Assembly (NCBI GenBank): GCA_963699255.1
Contig: OY969425.1
Location: 870,001-902,000, forward strand
Source of the DNA: an uncultured bacterium
GTDB taxonomy: Bacteria; Margulisbacteria; WOR-1; CAVSGV01
Direction: 5' to 3'
Length of the DNA: 32,000 nucleotides
The stretch's first letter is position 1. Every line of letters begins with the position of its first letter. A program made the position numbers and the translations under genes. Shown piece by piece: positions 2,835 through 10,886 of the stretch. The notes beneath the pieces are model-generated. The model was not told where the DNA came from, made no database searches, and saw only the letters and a list, made by a program, of their open reading frames with translations.

Positions 2835-3365
2835 ATGAAGAAATTTGTTGTCTATCTTATTATTGCGAGTTTATTGTCTCCGATGATCACTTCACTTGCT
2901 TGCGCCTTTGAGTACACTCTCGCCACAAACGACCTCCTCGAAGTCAAAATCCTTAATCAGAAGGATATGGATACAAAACAAACTATCACGCCGGATGGCA
3001 CTATTGCGCTCCCCTTTCTTGGAAGGGTCCAAGCTCAAGGGAAAACGCTTACTGAATTTCAGGCCTATTTAACGACTGAATTTGCCAAATATGTGGATAA
3101 ACCTCAGCTTGTTGTCTATCTCACGCCACGATCAATATATGTTGTTCAGCATGACATTAAAAAAAACACCTGGGATGTCAAGGAGGCTAAATCCATTCCG
3201 GAAGCTAAAGCATTCGCTGGCGAGGATTACACAAAAGAGATCAAATATGGTGATGTTATTACCGTTGATGTCGGTCTTCAACCTGACTGGTGGGAAAATA
3301 ACTGGTATAAAGTACTTACCGGAACAGCTGTTGCAGTCGGGATATACGAAACGCTGAAAAAGTAA
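2835..3365 (+). CDS. small secreted/membrane protein with polysaccharide-export (Poly_export/Wza N-terminal)-like domain
   Basis: A strong SD (aaggagg) precedes the ATG. There is an N-terminal signal-like segment. The stretch Y.L..NDLLEVKI...ITPDGTIALPFLGRVQAQGKTLTEFQ...YV..PQLVVYL matches the Poly_export pattern. A C-terminal hydrophobic helix is present. Confidence 0.55.
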   Translation: MKKFVVYLIIASLLSPMITSLACAFEYTLATNDLLEVKILNQKDMDTKQTITPDGTIALPFLGRVQAQGKTLTEFQAYLTTEFAKYVDKPQLVVYLTPRSIYVVQHDIKKNTWDVKEAKSIPEAKAFAGEDYTKEIKYGDVITVDVGLQPDWWENNWYKVLTGTAVAVGIYETLKK

Positions 3366-3371
3366 GAAGTA

Positions 3372-4052
3372 TTATGGTGCTATAGGTAGCATTAAAAAAG
3401 AAAAGATTTCTTTCTTACATCCTTTAAATAATATATCCAAATCACTATCAACCTCATGAATTTCCGCAGATAACTGCATCCTATCTTTTAACGGATCTCG
3501 CGGAACAAGATCTATTGGTTCATGATGACTTAAATAGATTTTTCTTAATAAATCTGCTTTTTCCTCCATCATTCCTCTAATGAGTATAATTTTTTTACTA
3601 ATACTAGCATTAAACAAGATAGTCCCCTCATCCTCTAAATTAACCAAATTATTATGTAATTTACCATACTTTGTATCTTTCGACTCAATCGATCTATTGG
3701 GGATCACATCTTCAGGAGATAAACCATACAAGATGATTGCGACAACTTCATTTTTTAGAAGAGAATAATAACCCCATCTAATCTGCCGAAATGCCAAATT
3801 CATTTCGTTTGCATGTTTTTGTTTTTCAAACTCTTGATCCTCTTTTTTATGCCACAAAGTTCCGATAGTAAATAAAATTGCAGCCAAAGGGAGCCCGACC
3901 GATTGTAGCGTTTTAATGCCCTTTATGTAGGCGATATAAATCAAAACCAGTGTAATCATAAAACAGCCCTGATAAAACTGTTTCATGTGATCTTCAACAA
4001 ACACAGCCAATGCTTTTAAGATATTCGCGCCTATTAACCAGATTTTAGACAC
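3372..4052 (-). CDS. hypothetical membrane protein (226 aa), last gene of the type IIG operon
   Basis: GTG start preceded by ggtggaggg-N8. There are 2-3 N-terminal TM helices (ITLVLIYIAYI, LPLAAILFTIGTLW) followed by a soluble domain with no recognisable motif. Confidence 0.5.
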   Translation of the reverse strand: MSKIWLIGANILKALAVFVEDHMKQFYQGCFMITLVLIYIAYIKGIKTLQSVGLPLAAILFTIGTLWHKKEDQEFEKQKHANEMNLAFRQIRWGYYSLLKNEVVAIILYGLSPEDVIPNRSIESKDTKYGKLHNNLVNLEDEGTILFNASISKKIILIRGMMEEKADLLRKIYLSHHEPIDLVPRDPLKDRMQLSAEIHEVDSDLDILFKGCKKEIFSFLMLPIAP

Positions 4053-4060
4053 CTTTGCTT

Positions 4061-4083
4061 CCCTCCACCACCTTAATCTCCTC
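4061..4083 (-). repeat. junction motif copy J3 (ccctccaccaccttaatctcctc)
   Basis: 21/23 identical to J2 and 20/23 identical to J1. It lies at the 3' end of the 256/269-aa ORF and provides the SD for the next gene. Confidence 0.9.
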
Positions 4084-4840
4084 CTGTTTGCTGGCAGATG
4101 GGCCCATCAGCACTACAAGCTATTCTCATAAGGTCATGCAACTCCTTAGATAATTGTTCCAGCTTATTGTCGTAATGCATTTCTTGAAATTTGACTGGCG
4201 AAATCAATTGCATTATCTTTAAACATAATATGCCACCCTGAGCTACACTTCCTAGATTCAAGACAATACTTTCGGGATCCCCTTTTAATAGTACTAAGCT
4301 ATTAATAGTTACTTTTGAAGCCATTGCCCTAACATTAGGATGTGCTCCATGATCAATATAAAATTCATATACTCTATTTGTCTCGTCCCCAACCACTTGA
4401 TTTGTTTGGGTTAAAAGACCAATAATTTCTTTTATTCTAATATTATTTCTTAGCTCCCTCTTGTTATCCTCGCTACTATGGCGTTCCAACCAGACGCTTA
4501 TTAATTCAGGTTTTTTATATAGATAAAAACCATATAGAGCCGCTTCAATCATCCCACGCAATATCATATATGTTTCAGACACTAGGCCAGAAGATGCTAA
4601 TTGTACGGCAATTAAATATGAAGGATGGGCGATATCAAAAAAGAAAATGGGCGCATCATTTTCGGCTTTTGGCAGTTGATGTATGCTATTGAAAATATTA
4701 TCTATTTCGATAATTAAGTCAAAAAATTTTCTATTATATTTAAATGTCGCGAAACAATTTAACCTCATCGTTTCAAAGTATTTTGTAACGGAGTCTTCGC
4801 CCCAGCCAGGCGGGATTGTATTTGGATTTTGTTCTATCAC
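4073..4840 (-). CDS. hypothetical protein (256 aa from GTG 4840; alternative ATG at 4882), mostly alpha-helical, possibly AbiV/DUF5677-like
   Basis: The GTG at 4840 overlaps the upstream stop as GTGA. The segment AVQLASSGLVSETYMILRGMIEAALYGFYLYKKPE recalls helical Abi/HEPN-like families, but no clean Rx4-6H motif was seen. Confidence 0.5.
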   Translation of the reverse strand: MIEQNPNTIPPGWGEDSVTKYFETMRLNCFATFKYNRKFFDLIIEIDNIFNSIHQLPKAENDAPIFFFDIAHPSYLIAVQLASSGLVSETYMILRGMIEAALYGFYLYKKPELISVWLERHSSEDNKRELRNNIRIKEIIGLLTQTNQVVGDETNRVYEFYIDHGAHPNVRAMASKVTINSLVLLKGDPESIVLNLGSVAQGGILCLKIMQLISPVKFQEMHYDNKLEQLSKELHDLMRIACSADGPICQQTGGD

Positions 4841-5601
4841 CCCTCCACCACCTTGACCTCCTCTTCTGTCAATCTGCAACAAATTTCCTTGGAAGATTTA
4901 TCATACAGTAAGAAATATTTATTTATATCTAGCTTTAGAAATATTTTGTCTGGAACCATGTCAGTCGTCTTATTATGATTAACTATTTCATTTTTTAGAT
5001 ATTCGGGCAGATCCCCATTGGAAATGCTACTAACAAATAGTAATATCTTGCAATATTGAGAATACTTTCCTAGTTGATTCCCTGCCTTTTCAATTGACCG
5101 GAAAACGCCGAGTGAGGGATTTTCGCAAGCAGTAGAAGAATCGCCAAAGATGATTGACTGTCCCGTATCTTGATGTTTGTCAATATAAACCTTCCCAACA
5201 TTGGGAAGGTTGAAGGATTTTTCATTTTTATTAATGGCATTCAAGACTTGTTCAATAAATATAGTGGCATCATTTTCAGAGTTTATTCTGAGGTTATTGG
5301 GAAGAGGTATGGTATAAATCCCCCTAGAAAACGACATTTCATTGGATGCAAGTGCTTTGCGCAATCGCACTTTAATCCTTTCATTGCGGATAATATCTGC
5401 TGTAATTTGCTGATGAATAAAAGTCTTTATCTCAACAACACTATTTATTTCCCTCAAGAGATAATCCGGCTCCCTAGATATACTCGCTGTGTCTAAAGGG
5501 ATAGCTTGAATGATCATGTTACTTTGTTTAAAGCAAGAATCATAAAACGCCTTTAATTCATCATCTTCTTTTTTATGCTCTTGGCTAAAAATCAAAGTCA
5601 C
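4837..5601 (-). CDS. hypothetical protein (254 aa) with PD-ExK-like motif
   Basis: The GTG start overlaps the RM stop as GTGA (5598-5601). EPDYLLREINSVVEIKT fits a (P)D...ExK nuclease core. The C-terminus, LTEEEVKVVEG, copies the RM enzyme tail. Confidence 0.5.
   Translation of the reverse strand: MTLIFSQEHKKEDDELKAFYDSCFKQSNMIIQAIPLDTASISREPDYLLREINSVVEIKTFIHQQITADIIRNERIKVRLRKALASNEMSFSRGIYTIPLPNNLRINSENDATIFIEQVLNAINKNEKSFNLPNVGKVYIDKHQDTGQSIIFGDSSTACENPSLGVFRSIEKAGNQLGKYSQYCKILLFVSSISNGDLPEYLKNEIVNHNKTTDMVPDKIFLKLDINKYFLLYDKSSKEICCRLTEEEVKVVEG
4841..4863 (-). repeat. junction motif copy J2 (ccctccaccaccttgacctcctc)
   Basis: See J1 and J3. It encodes EEVKVVEG at the end of the 254-aa ORF and gives an SD-like GGTGGAGG for the next gene. 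Confidence 0.9.
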
Positions 5602-8483
5602 TTCTCCCCCTCCACCACCGCGATCTCCTCTTTCGTCAGGTCATAAAGCTCATAAACAAGGTCATCTATCTGCTTATCGAGTATTTCTATCTTCTGCTGA
5701 TAGTGCTTCTTATCGCTTTCAGTCTTGGCAGAATGTGCCTTTTTCTTTGTTTCGAGCATTTGGTCGACAAGAGAAGTAATAGATTTCATGGCATTTGTAT
5801 CGGCAATATTTATTGGGAGTTGAGCAATATGCCCTCTTTTGACCTGTGCAAGCGCCTCTCCCTTTTCAGGATTCAATATGTTTTGATAATACCAGTTCAT
5901 CAATTTAGAATTAATTAACCCTAAAACATATTTCAAATCAATATTTGATCTTTTTGGCACTACCGTATACAAATTATCGCGAACGATAAATTGTGATTCG
6001 TCTAATGTCGCCACTAAAGAATCTCCGGTTTGTCGAATCACTATTTTAGCTTTTGCGTCATAATCTGCGGAATAACGCGGTTCAGCAAGCCAATCTCCAA
6101 ACTTTATATAATAATTATTATTCCAAATTATTAAATATCTGTTCATTAAACTTCCTCGAAGAAGTGGACGGAAACTTGAATTCTTGTGTTCATCTGAAAC
6201 AAACGGCTTATCTTCGAGGATTTGCTTTGTTTGGGGAGGAACTCCTTTGCCAACCTGAAAAGGTTTGCTCCCCTGCGTAATTTTACATATTTCGTCAAGA
6301 ACCGGGAACCTATTTATTTTCTTTAAAAGCCCGTTATCTTCTTTTCTTTGCATAATATTAATTGGTTTGCCATTCAATTTAATCCAGTCTAGCTGTAAAG
6401 CATTGTTCTTTGTGATTTGCCCATTTTTATTATTAATTTCAATACCAATGTTATGTGTTTTACTTGGAAATAAATTACTTATTATCAAAATTTGAGTGTC
6501 CACAACCGCATCTTTGAAAACCGGTATACGATAATCAACAATTCTCTCTATCTGGGTTTTATTTATTAAATATTGGCGAATGTTTGAATATTGTAAGCTT
6601 ATTAACCAGGTATTTGGGATAATAAAACTAAGTAGCCCATTTTTACTTAATAATTTATGCCCTTTCTCAAGGAAAAGCAAATAGCTGTCCATTTGATAAT
6701 TTTGCATTTCATAAGTCTTTGTTATGTAACTTACCTCATCTTTTCCGAATAATGCCCCATAAGGTGGATTCCCAATCACCACATCAAAACCACCGTTTGC
6801 CATGATCTCGCCAAATCCTTTATCCTTGTCATGCCAATCATAATCATTGATCTTATTTTTTAACTCTCTATCATCAAATAATTGCAAATTTTCTTTATAG
6901 AAATCTGGCCCTATCAGCGAATTGCCGCATTTGATATTATTTTTTAGTTCGGGCAAATATTTAAAGTTGCTTTCTTTAAATAATTTTGCCTGTCCTTCCT
7001 GCTCAATTTCCATATTTTCTTCCTTCATGAGCGTAAGCAATAATGATAGCCTTGTTACCTCGACAGCTTGTTTGTCAATGTCCACCCCATAAATATTATT
7101 CTTAAGTATTCTTTGTTTTTCAGGGATTGACAGATAGTAGTCATTATTGATGGTGTGATATATTTTGCCTTGTTTTAAGGACTTCTCTCGTCTACTTTCG
7201 TCCCAATAATAATCAAAATGATAATCTAACAGATGCTGATAGGCCCCGATCAAAAAACTTCCACTACCACAAGCCGGATCAAGTATTTTAATATTTGAGA
7301 TTTCATCCGGTGTTTTTTTGTTGATTTTTTTGTTAACCGTATTACTTACAATGTATTCAACAATATATTGTGGAGTGTAATACACCCCGCCTGCTTTTCT
7401 CACTTCTGGCTTCGGTTCAATTTTTACATGATTATTTTCAGTTAATTTGATTACTTTCCCGAGAAATTGTTCATAAATACTTCCGAGAATTTCGATTGGC
7501 ATCACGGAAAATGCATATGATTCATAAAGCTCATTGATGATGTGGAATAGTATATCGTCATCCACTTTAATTGAACTCAGCCATTCCTCAGATTCAAACA
7601 ACTCACTATTATATTTTTCTTTTGCTTTTTCAAACAGATCATTTAAAAGCTTATAAATATTTGCATGGGTCGTGATTTTTAAAAGTGTTTCATAGTCCTC
7701 AATGTCTTTATCTTCAGCTATTCTTAAAAAGATTAGCCTATCAATAAGTTTCTGAACCGCATAATTAAGCTTATCTGCTTCATCCATTTTTGGGTTGTTA
7801 TTAGCAATGCTTTTTGCAAACATTAATCGCCACTCATCAATTATTTCAAGAAATTCCTTGTCTAGGGGCTGATTCCCTTTTTGTGTCTTTATATTGTCCA
7901 GGCTTTTATTAACAACGGCATCTTTCGAGAATGTCTGATATATGTATTCGAAATTGGTTATATTTATATCATGCTCATAAGGGTCCAAGAGTTGTTCGTA
8001 GGTACAATAAAACACCCTTGCGGTCCGAACGCTATCGGATTTGGCGCGTACTTTTACTGTAGTGTCATATATAGCAAATTCAGCTGCGTTCGTTAATATA
8101 CAAAGTGGAAGATCGTGTGATCTCCCATACCTTCTAAGCTGGATAGCGGGGCCAACTTCTTCTTTAATTTTAACGGAAATTCTTTTTGCTTCAACATAAA
8201 ACTTATCGTGTTTGTTAATAATAAAGATATAGTCTGGATATTTCTGTCTCCCCTGAACCTTTCTTTTATTTTCTCTTCTTACTTCTCTCATTGACGGCGG
8301 GAGATGTTCGTCACTTTTCATGTCCCAACCTAATATCTCCATACCAAAAAACTTATCGATCAAATCGCTTCTAACATCTTCCTCTTGTTCTTTCTTATAC
8401 TCTTTATAGTAGCTAGATAAAGGGGTTATTATATCTTCCCTTAGCTTTTTAATTACTTTGTTATTACCGTTTTTTTGTTCCAC
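5598..8483 (-). CDS. type IIG (MmeI/Eco57I-like) fused restriction endonuclease / N6-adenine DNA methyltransferase
   Basis: The N-terminus has a PD-ExK motif (YPDYIFIINKHDKFYVEAKR). The SAM motif I is LDPACGSGSFL and catalytic motif IV is VVIGNPPYG. There is a long C-terminal target-recognition region. The tail, LTKEEIAVVEGEK, is typical of this methyltransferase family. Confidence 0.85.
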   Translation of the reverse strand: MEQKNGNNKVIKKLREDIITPLSSYYKEYKKEQEEDVRSDLIDKFFGMEILGWDMKSDEHLPPSMREVRRENKRKVQGRQKYPDYIFIINKHDKFYVEAKRISVKIKEEVGPAIQLRRYGRSHDLPLCILTNAAEFAIYDTTVKVRAKSDSVRTARVFYCTYEQLLDPYEHDINITNFEYIYQTFSKDAVVNKSLDNIKTQKGNQPLDKEFLEIIDEWRLMFAKSIANNNPKMDEADKLNYAVQKLIDRLIFLRIAEDKDIEDYETLLKITTHANIYKLLNDLFEKAKEKYNSELFESEEWLSSIKVDDDILFHIINELYESYAFSVMPIEILGSIYEQFLGKVIKLTENNHVKIEPKPEVRKAGGVYYTPQYIVEYIVSNTVNKKINKKTPDEISNIKILDPACGSGSFLIGAYQHLLDYHFDYYWDESRREKSLKQGKIYHTINNDYYLSIPEKQRILKNNIYGVDIDKQAVEVTRLSLLLTLMKEENMEIEQEGQAKLFKESNFKYLPELKNNIKCGNSLIGPDFYKENLQLFDDRELKNKINDYDWHDKDKGFGEIMANGGFDVVIGNPPYGALFGKDEVSYITKTYEMQNYQMDSYLLFLEKGHKLLSKNGLLSFIIPNTWLISLQYSNIRQYLINKTQIERIVDYRIPVFKDAVVDTQILIISNLFPSKTHNIGIEINNKNGQITKNNALQLDWIKLNGKPINIMQRKEDNGLLKKINRFPVLDEICKITQGSKPFQVGKGVPPQTKQILEDKPFVSDEHKNSSFRPLLRGSLMNRYLIIWNNNYYIKFGDWLAEPRYSADYDAKAKIVIRQTGDSLVATLDESQFIVRDNLYTVVPKRSNIDLKYVLGLINSKLMNWYYQNILNPEKGEALAQVKRGHIAQLPINIADTNAMKSITSLVDQMLETKKKAHSAKTESDKKHYQQKIEILDKQIDDLVYELYDLTKEEIAVVEGEK
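5608..5630 (-). repeat. junction motif copy J1 (ccctccaccaccgcgatctcctc)
   Basis: This is the native 3' end of the RM gene. It is 20/23 identical to both J2 and J3. Confidence 0.9.
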
Positions 8484-8591
8484 GATTAACCTCTAGCCTT
8501 TAACATCTCTCGCCAGCACTCATAAATCATGACCTTTGCCAGCATATCCAGCTCGCAATATTCTAAAAATATACGCCCAGAGAAGAACACT

Positions 8592-9812
8592 TCAATCCTC
8601 TTCGCCCTCCCCCTCCACCGGCTTCCCCACAGCTTCTTTATGTACCTTGGTCAAATATTTTTTGATTTTCTTTATTATATCAGCATCCCACTTCACATAC
8701 TCTTTAATTAATGCTGTTGTGCTAAGGTCCGACACCTCATCCCACTTGCCGATCTTTCTTATAATTTGCTCAAGTTCATCCCTTCCCTCTTCACTCTTCG
8801 CCGGGAAATGCGGCTTATCCTCTATCTTCACGCTAACCTTATAATCCTTGCCTTGCACCACACTAAGGTCTTTCTTTTTTGCAAATGCGATTATCGCTTC
8901 CTTAAGTTTCTCGATCTCAGCATCAACAGCCTCAACCTTTGCCTCTGCCTTTTCCTTGGCCTCATATAAGTCGGCGTATTTCCCTACCAGCACAAGCCCG
9001 TTATCCTTTAAATATTCATTCTTCTCTTTCTTTTCAAGCTCAATGCCATGCTTCTTTGCAGGGCATATCTCTATGAATTCGCACCAATCGCATAGGCGTG
9101 ATTCAATAGGTTTAAAGTTATCATCAGCCTCTATCTCCTTGATCGTGGTTAATAGCTCAGCTTTAAGCTCTTTTATCTGCTTTTTGGTTCGGCGGGACTC
9201 TACATCGCGGTTATCTGCCAAGAAATGCCATATAAGCACTATCTCTTTAGCCTCGGGATACTGCTGCTCAACAAATATCTGATAAAGCGCCAGCTGCCTG
9301 CTTGCATCCGCCTGTTCTTGAGTATAACCGGACTGCCCGGTCTTATAATCGTGTATTTCAAAGGTCCCCTTGCCGTTGTGCGATAAACGGTCAATAAAGC
9401 CGTTTATTCTATACTCTCCCGCATCATCCAGGTTAAAATGGATCATCATCTCCAGCCCAAGCGTATATGTCTGGTTGAACGGCTTGAACCTTTCATAGTA
9501 ATCGGTTAGCTGCTTTACTCCCGCATCGTAGTAATTCTGGGCGGTGAAGCCTTTGCGAACTATCTGAACATCTTTTGTAAATTTCTTGTCCCAAAGCTCT
9601 TTGTATAGGTCCAATGTCTCTTTGAGAGAGAATACTTTGCCCATTTTTTGGGCTTTATATAGCTGTTCTAGTGTTTCGTGAGCTCTTTTCCCAAGGAAAG
9701 CTTCTATTCCTTCTGGGGATTCCGGCATCTTAATTCTATCTATGTAGTTAAACTTAAACTTTCGGGGGCAGGTTTCATAGCATCCAATTTTTGAGTGTGA
9801 ATAATTCGGCAT
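8592..9812 (-). CDS. PD-(D/E)XK nuclease, Cas4/AddB-like with Cys cluster, plus coiled-coil C-terminal extension
   Basis: An N-terminal Cys (GCYETCPRKF), IHDYKTG (DxK), QLALYQIF (QxxxY) and CDWCEFIEICP give the 1+3 Cys pattern of Cas4/AddB iron-sulfur nucleases. The K/E-rich C-terminal approx 140 aa looks coiled-coil. Confidence 0.75.
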   Translation of the reverse strand: MPNYSHSKIGCYETCPRKFKFNYIDRIKMPESPEGIEAFLGKRAHETLEQLYKAQKMGKVFSLKETLDLYKELWDKKFTKDVQIVRKGFTAQNYYDAGVKQLTDYYERFKPFNQTYTLGLEMMIHFNLDDAGEYRINGFIDRLSHNGKGTFEIHDYKTGQSGYTQEQADASRQLALYQIFVEQQYPEAKEIVLIWHFLADNRDVESRRTKKQIKELKAELLTTIKEIEADDNFKPIESRLCDWCEFIEICPAKKHGIELEKKEKNEYLKDNGLVLVGKYADLYEAKEKAEAKVEAVDAEIEKLKEAIIAFAKKKDLSVVQGKDYKVSVKIEDKPHFPAKSEEGRDELEQIIRKIGKWDEVSDLSTTALIKEYVKWDADIIKKIKKYLTKVHKEAVGKPVEGEGEED

Positions 9813-9855
9813 TACTAAATATTACCTCTCTTTCCGGTCAAAAACAACCAGTTGA

Positions 9856-9868
9856 GTGTATTGTACAC
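9856..9868. promoter_or_regulatory. candidate operator (gtgta-ttg-tacac) in the divergent nuclease/WYL intergenic region, with an extended -10-like tgatataat at 9900-9908
   Basis: Inverted repeat and TGnTATAAT seen directly. Functional assignment is inferred. Confidence 0.3.
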
Positions 9869-9920
9869 CAGATCTCTGTCAGTATTTGTCAGAGTACTAT
9901 GATATAATTTCGGCAGGATC

Positions 9921-10886
9921 ATGGAACGTCATACTTATATACGCATAGCAAAGATCGATGCTCAGATCAGGCAGAAAAAGCACCCGAACTGCAAAAAGCT
10001 TGCTGATCAATTTGAAACCTCCCAACGCACCATACTCCGCGACATAGAGGCCATGAAGGATTCTATGGGCGCGCCCATCGGCTACAGCAAGGAGAGGAAC
10101 GGCTACTACTACACGGATGATAATTTTCAGTTGCCGGAAATACGACTTACGGAAGGCGAGCTTGTATCTATTTTCCTTGGTGAAGAAATTCTGAAAAAAT
10201 ACCAGGGAACGCCGTTCGGCTCCGTCATAACCAGCGCGTTCGAAAAGATTCGCCTCTCCTTGCCGGACTCCATATCTATAGACCTAAACACTATTAGCGA
10301 CAGTTTCTCTTTTAATATACCGCAAACCAGGAAACTGGATGAACAATCAGCAAAGACGTTCGATATATTGGCAAAAGCGATAAAAACTAAGAACAGTGTT
10401 GAAATAACATACCATGCTCTTGGCAGGAACACTATAGCAAAACGCATTGTGGATCCCTACCACCTGCGCCACTCCATGGGCACCTGGTATCTCATTGGTT
10501 ATTGCCAACTCAGGAAAGATTTTAGGACGTTTATTATTAACCAGATCCGCACCATCAAGGTCATAGATAGCAAGTACAAGGTTGACCCGACCTTTTCTAT
10601 TGAAAAGTTCCTTGCTTATTCATGGGATATTTTTGAGGGAGCTCCTATAACAAAGGTAAAAATTAAGCTGGATAAAGAGATCGCCAGATGGTTCATCGAT
10701 AGAAAGCTCCACCCCACCCAAAAGACAACCGAGAATAAGGATGGCTCAATTACGATGGAATTTAAAGTTTCAGGAACATCAGAGATAAAAAGATGGGTTT
10801 TGGGCCAGGGGAAATATGCAAAGGTGATCGAGCCACGAAGCCTGAGGCGGGAGATAATTGAAGAAGCAAAGGAAATGCAGAAATAG
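9921..10886 (+). CDS. HTH + WYL-domain transcriptional regulator (BrxR/CapW/PafBC-like)
   Basis: The N-terminal wHTH reads KKLADQFETSQRTILRDIEAM, followed by GYYY. The central WYL region reads HLRHSMGTWYLIGYCQLRKDFRTFIINQI. The gene is divergent from the nuclease/RM operon. Confidence 0.8.
   Translation: MERHTYIRIAKIDAQIRQKKHPNCKKLADQFETSQRTILRDIEAMKDSMGAPIGYSKERNGYYYTDDNFQLPEIRLTEGELVSIFLGEEILKKYQGTPFGSVITSAFEKIRLSLPDSISIDLNTISDSFSFNIPQTRKLDEQSAKTFDILAKAIKTKNSVEITYHALGRNTIAKRIVDPYHLRHSMGTWYLIGYCQLRKDFRTFIINQIRTIKVIDSKYKVDPTFSIEKFLAYSWDIFEGAPITKVKIKLDKEIARWFIDRKLHPTQKTTENKDGSITMEFKVSGTSEIKRWVLGQGKYAKVIEPRSLRREIIEEAKEMQK

Follow-up and report, generated by a model that had tools for sequence, protein, structure and literature searches.

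How does a restriction–modification (RM) gene come to be followed by a row of unrelated genes, each preceded by a copy of the end of that same RM gene? The question is raised by a 32,000-nucleotide stretch of contig OY969425.1 from an uncultured bacterium of the Margulisbacteria (hereafter the window), in which a Type IIG RM gene and three downstream genes, called c1, c2 and c3, are joined on the minus strand by three near-identical copies (J1, J2 and J3) of a short module. We find that this module corresponds to the 3′ end, or tail, of the RM gene, that the genes behind such tails (the cargo) vary from one genome to the next, and that displaced tail copies recur in other bacterial phyla and in archaea. 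We consider it fairly probable that the conserved tail is a joint for homology-driven insertion and displacement of cargo, comparable to what has been proposed for Rhs loci, with tail copies left standing before the stacked genes.

Three copies of one module at successive gene junctions

The module (GAGGAGNTNNNGGTGGTGGAGGG, minus strand) is found exactly at 5608-5630 (J1), 4841-4863 (J2) and 4061-4083 (J3), where the first-pass annotation of the window had reported three near-identical copies at gene junctions. J1 and J2 agree at 20/23 positions, as do J1 and J3, while J2 and J3 agree at 21/23. No further match was obtained in the window with up to three mismatches allowed, and dinucleotide shuffles gave an expectation of 0.00. 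J1 closes the RM gene of 961 amino acids (aa), whose protein ends in LTKEEIAVVEGEK. J2 closes c1, an open reading frame (ORF) of 254 aa with the protein end RLTEEEVKVVEG; the tail core at this junction, LTEEEVKVVEG and a stop, extends over 4837-4872, and 26 nucleotides (nt) of it are 88% identical to the RM 3′ end. At J3, a frame-shifted tail remnant covering 4045-4090, the 255-aa ORF c2 terminates within the module with the residues QQTGGD and a TAA at 4075-4073. In an alternative frame (Q)EEIKVVEGSKGV followed by a stop is still readable. J3 is 2 nt shorter than J2 (ACAGAAGAGGAG compared with ACAGGAGGAG, the gap being judged by eye), and the c2 frame may therefore once have run on into the tail, like that of c1. 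The same ending, GGD, is present in protein P0135, called on a second contig from a Logan assembly.

The RM/c1 and c1/c2 junctions are both GTGA stop/start overlaps. The TGA of the RM gene (5600-5598) overlaps the GTG start of c1 (5601-5599), and the TGA of c1 (4839-4837) overlaps the GTG of c2 (4840-4838). The GTG of c3 (4052-4050) lies 8 nt 3′ of a GGAGGG sequence in J3. The end of the module supplies a Shine–Dalgarno sequence and the stop/start overlap, in agreement with the earlier proposal that part of it is the Shine–Dalgarno sequence of the following gene. The 12-mer core of the module, GGTGGTGGAGGG, occurs only five times in the 1.77-Mb genome, three times in the window array and once at a second RM locus, the fifth copy (at 830455) being apparently unrelated. 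Octamers inside the module occur at their Markov expectation. These counts speak against a common genome-wide Shine–Dalgarno or codon pattern, which the annotation had named as the finding that would overturn its view.

The module matches the end of Type IIG RM genes

The RM gene (5598-8483, minus strand) is predicted to encode a Type IIG enzyme. It gave Pfam matches to Eco57I (3.5e-40), TaqI_C (1e-24) and N6_Mtase (4.2e-20) and a PADLOC match to REase_MTase_IIG (1.6e-156) that is aligned to residues 2-736. A putative N-terminal HSDR_N-type nuclease (24.1 bits, just under the cut-off of 25.1) is followed by the Eco57I/N6_Mtase methyltransferase, a TaqI_C specificity domain at residues 773-891 and a conserved C-terminal region. 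As is characteristic of Type IIG enzymes, the methyltransferase is contained in a single polypeptide, with the TaqI_C domain followed by an LYGLTxEEIxVVE tail. The last ~27 residues fit the family consensus xDKQIDxLVYKLYGLTEEEIxVVE (alignment A1), built from nine copies at eight loci, of which seven end RM genes and two are downstream copies. At least 19 RM-attached tails fit this consensus, which bears out the suggestion that an LTEEEIxxVEG ending is typical of the family. Judged from the alignment, the module makes up the final 33-40 nt (LTxEEIxVVEG and the stop) of the C-terminal region of Eco57I/TaqI_C-type Type IIG RM genes. The conserved tail in the window, ILDKQIDDLVYELYDLTKEEIAVVEGEK followed by a stop, occupies 5598-5681 and includes J1.

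At the DNA level no other part of the gene is conserved as well as the tail. The last ~170 nt of the RM gene are 77-83% identical to genomes of other families, compared with 64-67% for the gene body. When seven RM genes are aligned by codon, the third-position identity is 0.46-0.69 within the last 35 codons and 0.27-0.46 elsewhere, catalytic motifs included. Glutamate is encoded by GAG in 72/98 tail codons (517/1391 in the gene body) and valine by GTG in 36/59 (227/950 in the gene body), although the genes are otherwise AT-rich; the sample is in part biased by the way in which the loci were located. A hand tally of a protein-selected subset gave ~58% GAG in the tail and 27% in the body. Two lineages use GAA in the tail despite the general GAG skew. 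The tail is a double-duty sequence, being at once the protein C-terminus and the Shine–Dalgarno sequence with start overlap for a variable partner gene, and the use of one stretch for both tasks would explain the frozen synonymous sites. The downstream gene is presumably translationally coupled to the RM gene.

Cargo changes at the tail

Genomes G016 and G025, from a single genus, carry the RM gene at the same chromosomal place. BLASTN aligns the two loci in just two places, the terminal 143 nt of the RM gene (89% identity) and 2.9 kb of the right flank (70%). To either side of the tail the genomes diverge, in the specificity domain before it and in the cargo after it, and similarity stops ~20 nt 3′ of the VVE codons. 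One genome has as cargo a 537-aa ORF with an N-terminus that by eye resembles AlbA_2/HATPase_c_4, and the other has two ORFs, a membrane-type one of 151 aa and one of 211 aa that by eye resembles DUF3800. This pair of relatives shows the cargo boundary at the motif that the first-pass annotation had made decisive for its view. A different ORF also begins at the tail stop in 9-10 of 12 further RM loci. The cargo modules found behind similar tails are mutually unrelated, and they are not evolutionarily tied to the conserved gene. Their Pfam matches are to SIR2_2 (twice), TIR_2, ThsB_TIR, YhcG/DUF1016, RhuM with Fic, Bro-N and HATPase_c_4, by which the cargo is classed as defence-like.

Displaced tail copies in bacteria and archaea

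Among 65 genomes sampled from the class, 17 have the tail, and extra tail copies were found in five of these (G000, which is the source genome of the window, G022, G030, G056 and G028). The source genome carries a second Type IIG RM gene (1061 aa, C1:1438319-1441504, 33.5% GC), which is followed in order by an out-of-frame MLYGLTKEEIKVVEG with its stop, a RhuM/Fic gene, DLFGFTKEKLDVVEGEA and the core gene smc. G022 has the order RM gene, 486-aa gene, tail remnant and SIR2 gene. In G030 a Bro-N gene comes after the RM gene, then a remnant ORF of 37 aa, an ORF of 89 aa with the tail core at its end and a HATPase_c_4 gene.

Some details of these loci may be recorded here. At the second locus of the source genome (G000:C1:1436900-1441504, L032:6900-11505) two tandem ~55-nt units, GGGGGTGCGAGTGAAACGAGCGGGGGATTTTTGAYCC, are present between the first tail and the Fic gene. 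In G056 (L029:2440-4700) and G028 (L024:5300-7600), which represent two genera, remnants and differing cargo lie between pnp and the next conserved gene. The cargo consists of an AbiU2-like ORF (a weak match) and an AAA ATPase in one genome and of three ORFs of no known family in the other. G028 has another degenerate tail (YGLVEVEINK) directly after a promoter-like TATAAT.

The same arrangement recurs outside the class. A locus from the Desulfuromonadaceae consists of an RM gene, a YhcG nuclease gene and a tail copy with 39/40 nt matching, and extra copies are likewise present in Coatesbacteria, KSB1 and Anaerolineae. One metagenome contig has three tail copies with a ThsB-TIR gene between them, and on another (L161) two copies, 100% identical over ~75 nt, surround a 109-aa ORF. 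The largest number was found in an archaeon of the anaerobic methanotrophic (ANME) group (Methanophagaceae, G147), whose genome has 16 copies of the tail and five or more RM paralogues. One of its arrays (L164:3700-10400, on G147:C16) holds an RM gene and five further copies within 6.7 kb. Among its cargo are genes for a SIR2_2 protein and for a membrane protein resembling DUF2254, and two of the remnants are intact ORFs of 73 and 81 aa with ATG starts. Another ANME array contains a TIR gene together with two small paired ORFs, by eye similar to HicA/HicB. All copies are in the same orientation as the RM gene, as is nearly all cargo. Counting the window, a direct copy of the tail stands before a displaced module there and at ~12 other loci. 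Among viral contigs we found one RM gene with the tail, and no array in the 1.4 kb of sequence covered there. The plasmid collection gave no match to a 46-aa tail query, which was probably too short.

In a Chloroflexota metagenome-assembled genome (MAG; JAUWOY010000086.1, L126:1-900) the tail is present as five tandem units. Between these RM-tail units of ~70 nt lie hairpin-rich spacers of ~85 nt, of two kinds in alternation, with periods of 158 and 323 bp and 94% matches, and adjoin a gene that by eye is adenine deaminase-like. The layout superficially resembles a repeat-spacer array, and related units are found in two Anaerolineae MAGs (L099 and L139). On a metagenome contig (L157; 1340-1410, 1905-1975 and 3465-3535) the repeat runs ~65 nt past the tail stop, and the extension includes a GC-rich hairpin (GGGGNCGGTCYTCAGACCGGCCC) and a conserved TTTAAAGATATGTCC.

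Length and relationship of the copies

The tail copies differ in length, from 11 to ~76 codons (33 to ~230 nt), and never reach the specificity domain. The ANME array has four copies, of 135-193 nt, that show 83-87% identity with the RM 3′ end and start 165-225 nt before its stop. The breakpoints are thus confined to the region common to RM alleles, as homologous recombination predicts.

The first-pass annotation had taken the downstream copies for duplications of the resident RM 3′ end, made each time a gene was added. This does not agree with their sequences. At every variable codon (K/E, I/V and A/K) J1 departs from both J2 and J3, and 7 of 18 RM tails of other genomes match J2 as well as J1 does. 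By this comparison neither J2 nor J3 arose by recent duplication of J1. Similarly, two downstream copies at L139 are of a tail type unlike that of the resident RM gene. Since the downstream copies in the window and at L139 are no closer to the resident tail than foreign tails are, they would have been imported or would descend from earlier alleles. In four other arrays (L036, L062, L017 and L018) no tail resembles the extra copy more closely than that of the array's RM gene. Together with the identical pairs and the five-copy tandem amplification in L126, this suggests that the copies interact and recombine.

The RM gene and c1-c3 have a GC content of 33.5-35.8%, with c3 at 33.5%, compared with 43-44% for neighbouring genes and 47.5% for the genome. 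In view of this uniformly low GC content the window array probably arrived ready-made, having been assembled in a low-GC donor before it entered the genome.

A model for insertion and displacement at the RM tail

From these patterns we infer a recombination pathway, an order of events and a translational coupling. The tail would encode the last helices of the protein (IDxLVYxLYGLTxEEIxVVEG), with its G-rich end providing a ribosome-binding site and an overlapping stop and start for the cargo. Being the only part in which the DNA of RM alleles with different specificity domains and cargo is similar, it could act as a homology arm for RecA-type recombination. An incoming unit of tail and cargo would recombine into the resident tail, the unit being derived from a circle excised from another array, from a linear fragment with one homologous end or from unequal crossing-over. 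The earlier tail and its cargo would be shifted downstream in the process, with one direct tail copy staying before each displaced gene. On this model the order RM-J1-c1-J2-c2-J3-c3 in the window would be the product of at least two such events, c3 being the oldest partner and c1 the newest. Some of the retained copies might be reused, as a Shine–Dalgarno sequence and for coupling of the next gene. The ORF of c1, and formerly that of c2, would read through into the tail up to the tail stop.

Several observations weigh against homology-driven displacement. The window array itself showed neither a recombination intermediate nor a presence/absence polymorphism. The window repeats are only 23-36 nt long, which is about the lower limit for RecA-dependent exchange, and the joins in the window may instead have been made by illegitimate recombination or through microhomology. 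Elsewhere, roughly one displaced copy in two is not coupled to a following gene, so that a ribosome-binding role cannot explain the retention of all copies; most would be scars rather than maintained ribosome-binding sites. G056 and G028 have tails and cargo at the pnp locus without an RM gene, which requires an extra deletion step. Finally, the frozen synonymous sites could reflect another DNA or RNA function instead of exchange.

Other explanations have to be considered beside insertion and displacement at the tail. The downstream tails might be leftovers of deleted RM bodies from a former series of complete tandem RM genes, with the cargo representing the neighbours of these genes. Such relics would fit the foreign tail type of the L139 copies, the distance of J2 and J3 from J1 and the RM-less tails at the pnp locus, and the genomes with arrays do hold three to five RM paralogues with the tail. 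We nevertheless regard this origin as unlikely. None of 23 remnants examined reaches the specificity or methyltransferase domain, the longest having ~76 codons, and in the ANME array the left ends lie within 60 nt, whereas random deletion should give longer and more varied fragments. Moreover, the precise loss of up to five successive tandem RM genes would be required.

Local duplication with each insertion, by target-site duplication or by slippage and template switching, would make the copies paralogues of J1. The identical ~75-nt copies that flank one small ORF in L161 and the four arrays whose extra copy is nearest to the own RM tail are what such a process would leave, but gene conversion accounts equally well for near-identical pairs. 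The divergence of J1 from J2 and J3 and the variable length of the copies speak against it, as does the equally good match of foreign tails to J2. A transposon would be expected to duplicate a target of fixed length, whereas here the lengths vary from 33 to ~230 nt, the inserted single cargo genes have no transposase match and the units are without terminal inverted repeats. Local duplication appears to us distinctly unlikely.

It is also conceivable that the tail is retained as a functional peptide, a C-terminal tag or a free tail ORF of 30-80 aa that docks the cargo onto the RM enzyme. Intact small ORFs with start codons exist in G030 (37 aa), the ANME archaeon (73 and 81 aa) and G056 (27 aa), c1 and three other cargo ORFs have the tail core in frame, and the remnant peptides are near the consensus. 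However, J3 and both copies at the second locus of the source genome are out of frame or non-coding, the copy in G028 has an internal stop, and an 11-residue half motif is unlikely to fold alone. Since the L157 repeat continues past the stop through the hairpin, the copied unit is DNA, and remnants of functional tails would look conserved for a time even if unselected. Taken together, this makes a peptide function very unlikely as the reason for the repeats, though the longer remnant ORFs may have some role as peptides.

An integron-like site-specific capture, in which a dedicated recombinase acts on the module, had been suggested by the first-pass annotation. The tandem single-gene units behind one gene are indeed co-oriented and apparently promoterless, and no clear terminator separates them on the coding strand, although the promoter and terminator scan was uninformative. 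The idea found no support in the components of an integron. The best match to the integrase IntI (TIGR02249) scored 89.5 bits against a cut-off of 265, with none near the array, and single-stranded DNA folds of J1-J3 with ~45 nt on either side gave no attC-like structure on either strand (z from -0.05 to +1.43). The boundaries are spread over 11 to ~76 codons, and no recombinase gene was seen beside the arrays inspected in bacteria and archaea, the neighbours of which were not systematically screened. We consider a dedicated recombinase highly improbable. Chance or a generic Shine–Dalgarno pattern can be dismissed as practically negligible, even though the module contains GGAGG and V-V-E-G codons are possible at any coupled gene end, because shuffles give no matches, four of the five 12-mers are at RM loci and the octamers are not over-represented.

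Relation to known systems

The closest published model for insertion and displacement at the RM tail is the C-terminal displacement of Rhs (and CdiA) genes, in which laterally acquired modules recombine at a conserved stretch, with circular intermediates proposed, and older modules are pushed downstream (Jackson et al. 2009, PMC2935791). The two share a conserved homology handle and the retention, by each orphan, of a direct-orientation piece of it. They differ in that an intact enzyme gene, not a toxin core, provides the handle here with its 3′ end, and entire unrelated genes take the place of toxin tips and their immunity genes as modules. A Shine–Dalgarno sequence with a start overlap is part of the handle as well, and the displaced pieces are only 33-230 nt long. 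In Type I HsdS subunits, conserved regions flanking the target-recognition domains let specificity domains reassort by homologous recombination. The conserved helical region after the variable specificity domain could similarly be an allele crossover site, as the comparison of G016 with G025 indicates, but the crossover here would also move and stack separate downstream genes and leave repeated copies.

Chromosomal integrons are rich in defence cassettes (bioRxiv 10.1101/2024.07.02.601686). They resemble the RM arrays in their tandem, co-oriented and mostly single-gene units without evident promoters, which are read from upstream, and in their defence-like cargo. The RM arrays have no IntI, no attC hairpin and no fixed recombination point, the joint being the coding sequence of a neighbouring gene. 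P2-like phages and P4-like satellites have defence hotspots between conserved genes (PMC9122126), and these too hold variable anti-phage cargo at a fixed position with conserved bounds. Their flanks, however, are whole genes that occur once, whereas here a short gene end is repeated inside the array. As PMC12707154 summarises, the Type IC EcoprrI locus contains the gene of the PrrC anticodon nuclease. This is a parallel for an accessory effector in or behind an RM operon and, as a functional model, for cargo that may back up the RM system; that account mentions no tail duplication.

The presence of the same scar pattern in many bacteria and archaea suggests a common route, so far little described, by which defence gene arrays are built. 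In the papers that could be searched we found no description of this architecture of tail copies and cargo, which is not proof of its absence. If the model is correct, the 3′ ends of Type IIG RM genes would be natural docking sites where defence effectors are stacked, swapped and expressed, and this would go some way towards explaining the growth of defence islands around RM genes where no mobile-element machinery is devoted to it. One sequence would act as protein tail and ribosome-binding site at once. Genes between two tail copies would become candidate defence genes, including c1-c3, which belong to no known family, and ORFs of 30-80 aa downstream of Type IIG RM genes would have to be annotated as RM gene ends. 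A wider proposal, which we put forward tentatively and with considerable doubt, is that a cassette system which works without a recombinase, and has the tail as its joint, is spread across prokaryotes. Circles or fragments made of tail and cargo would then pass between RM paralogues and between genomes, and the RM genes would give SIR2, TIR, nuclease and Fic effectors both a place to land and a platform for expression. Tail ORFs of up to ~80 aa with start codons, or in-frame tags, might tie such cargo to the RM enzyme.

The cargo genes and other features of the window

The ORF of c1 (4837-5601, minus strand) encodes a PD-(D/E)XK-like protein (PDY...VEIK), the last 11 codons of which are the in-frame RM tail core. 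An exhaustive search gave nine distant relatives, P0003-P0011 (E from 2.7e-13 to 1e-3), which have a PDY..EVK motif in common; none of them ends in an RM tail. A BLASTP comparison of c1 with RM C-termini gave a match limited to LTEEEVKVVEG. In the absence of the tail from its relatives, the 11 tail codons of c1 would represent a fusion formed at the joint. We also considered the C-terminal half of c1 as a decayed RM fragment, for which permissive tblastn gave 23% identity over 160 aa, and rejected this because in BLASTP only the 11-aa tail is common to both. The c1 family is unnamed and carries a nuclease-like PDY...E(V/I)K motif, and its 707-712-aa relatives fuse the domain to a long helical C-terminal domain. 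In P0004 a native KITKDEIKLLEGWF is located at about the position where c1 has the RM tail core, which could be a source of microhomology or a coincidence.

The c2 ORF (4073-4840, minus strand), starting with the GTG at 4840 and ending inside J3, encodes a predicted all-helical protein. It gave no Pfam, PADLOC or NCBIfam match and is not similar to the AbiU2-like cargo of G056. A word-indexed homologue search with c1 and c2 returned only the queries themselves. Single-sequence structure models had a predicted local distance difference test (pLDDT) score of 41.5 for c1 and 35.7 for c2 (AlphaFold2), too poor for a fold search. The last gene of the array, c3 (3372-4052, minus strand, 226 aa), has a membrane-type N-terminus, is not followed by a tail copy and likewise gave no Pfam, PADLOC or NCBIfam match.

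An Rfam scan of positions 3000-10000 gave no credible match to a known RNA element. Two octamers, GGTGGTGG and GGTGGAGG, resemble Haemophilus Chi-like octamers. A Chi-like hotspot was dropped as a candidate, the octamers being observed 55 and 74 times where a Markov model expects 48.5 and 64.3, and arrays being present in archaea as well.

A 13-mer, GGTGGAGGGGGAG, occurs in the whole genome only in J1 and at 8607-8619, at the end of a Cas4-like gene, where it encodes PVEGEGE. The first-pass annotation had read it there as an echo of the module. The 13-mer is real and is common to both places, but we rejected a fourth tail copy at this gene end. The Cas4-like homologues (61-89% identity) lack the LTxEE part and share an acidic K-P-V/Y-x-x-x-E-E-D ending, so that the 13-mer is native to the C-terminus of that family and not a displaced RM tail.

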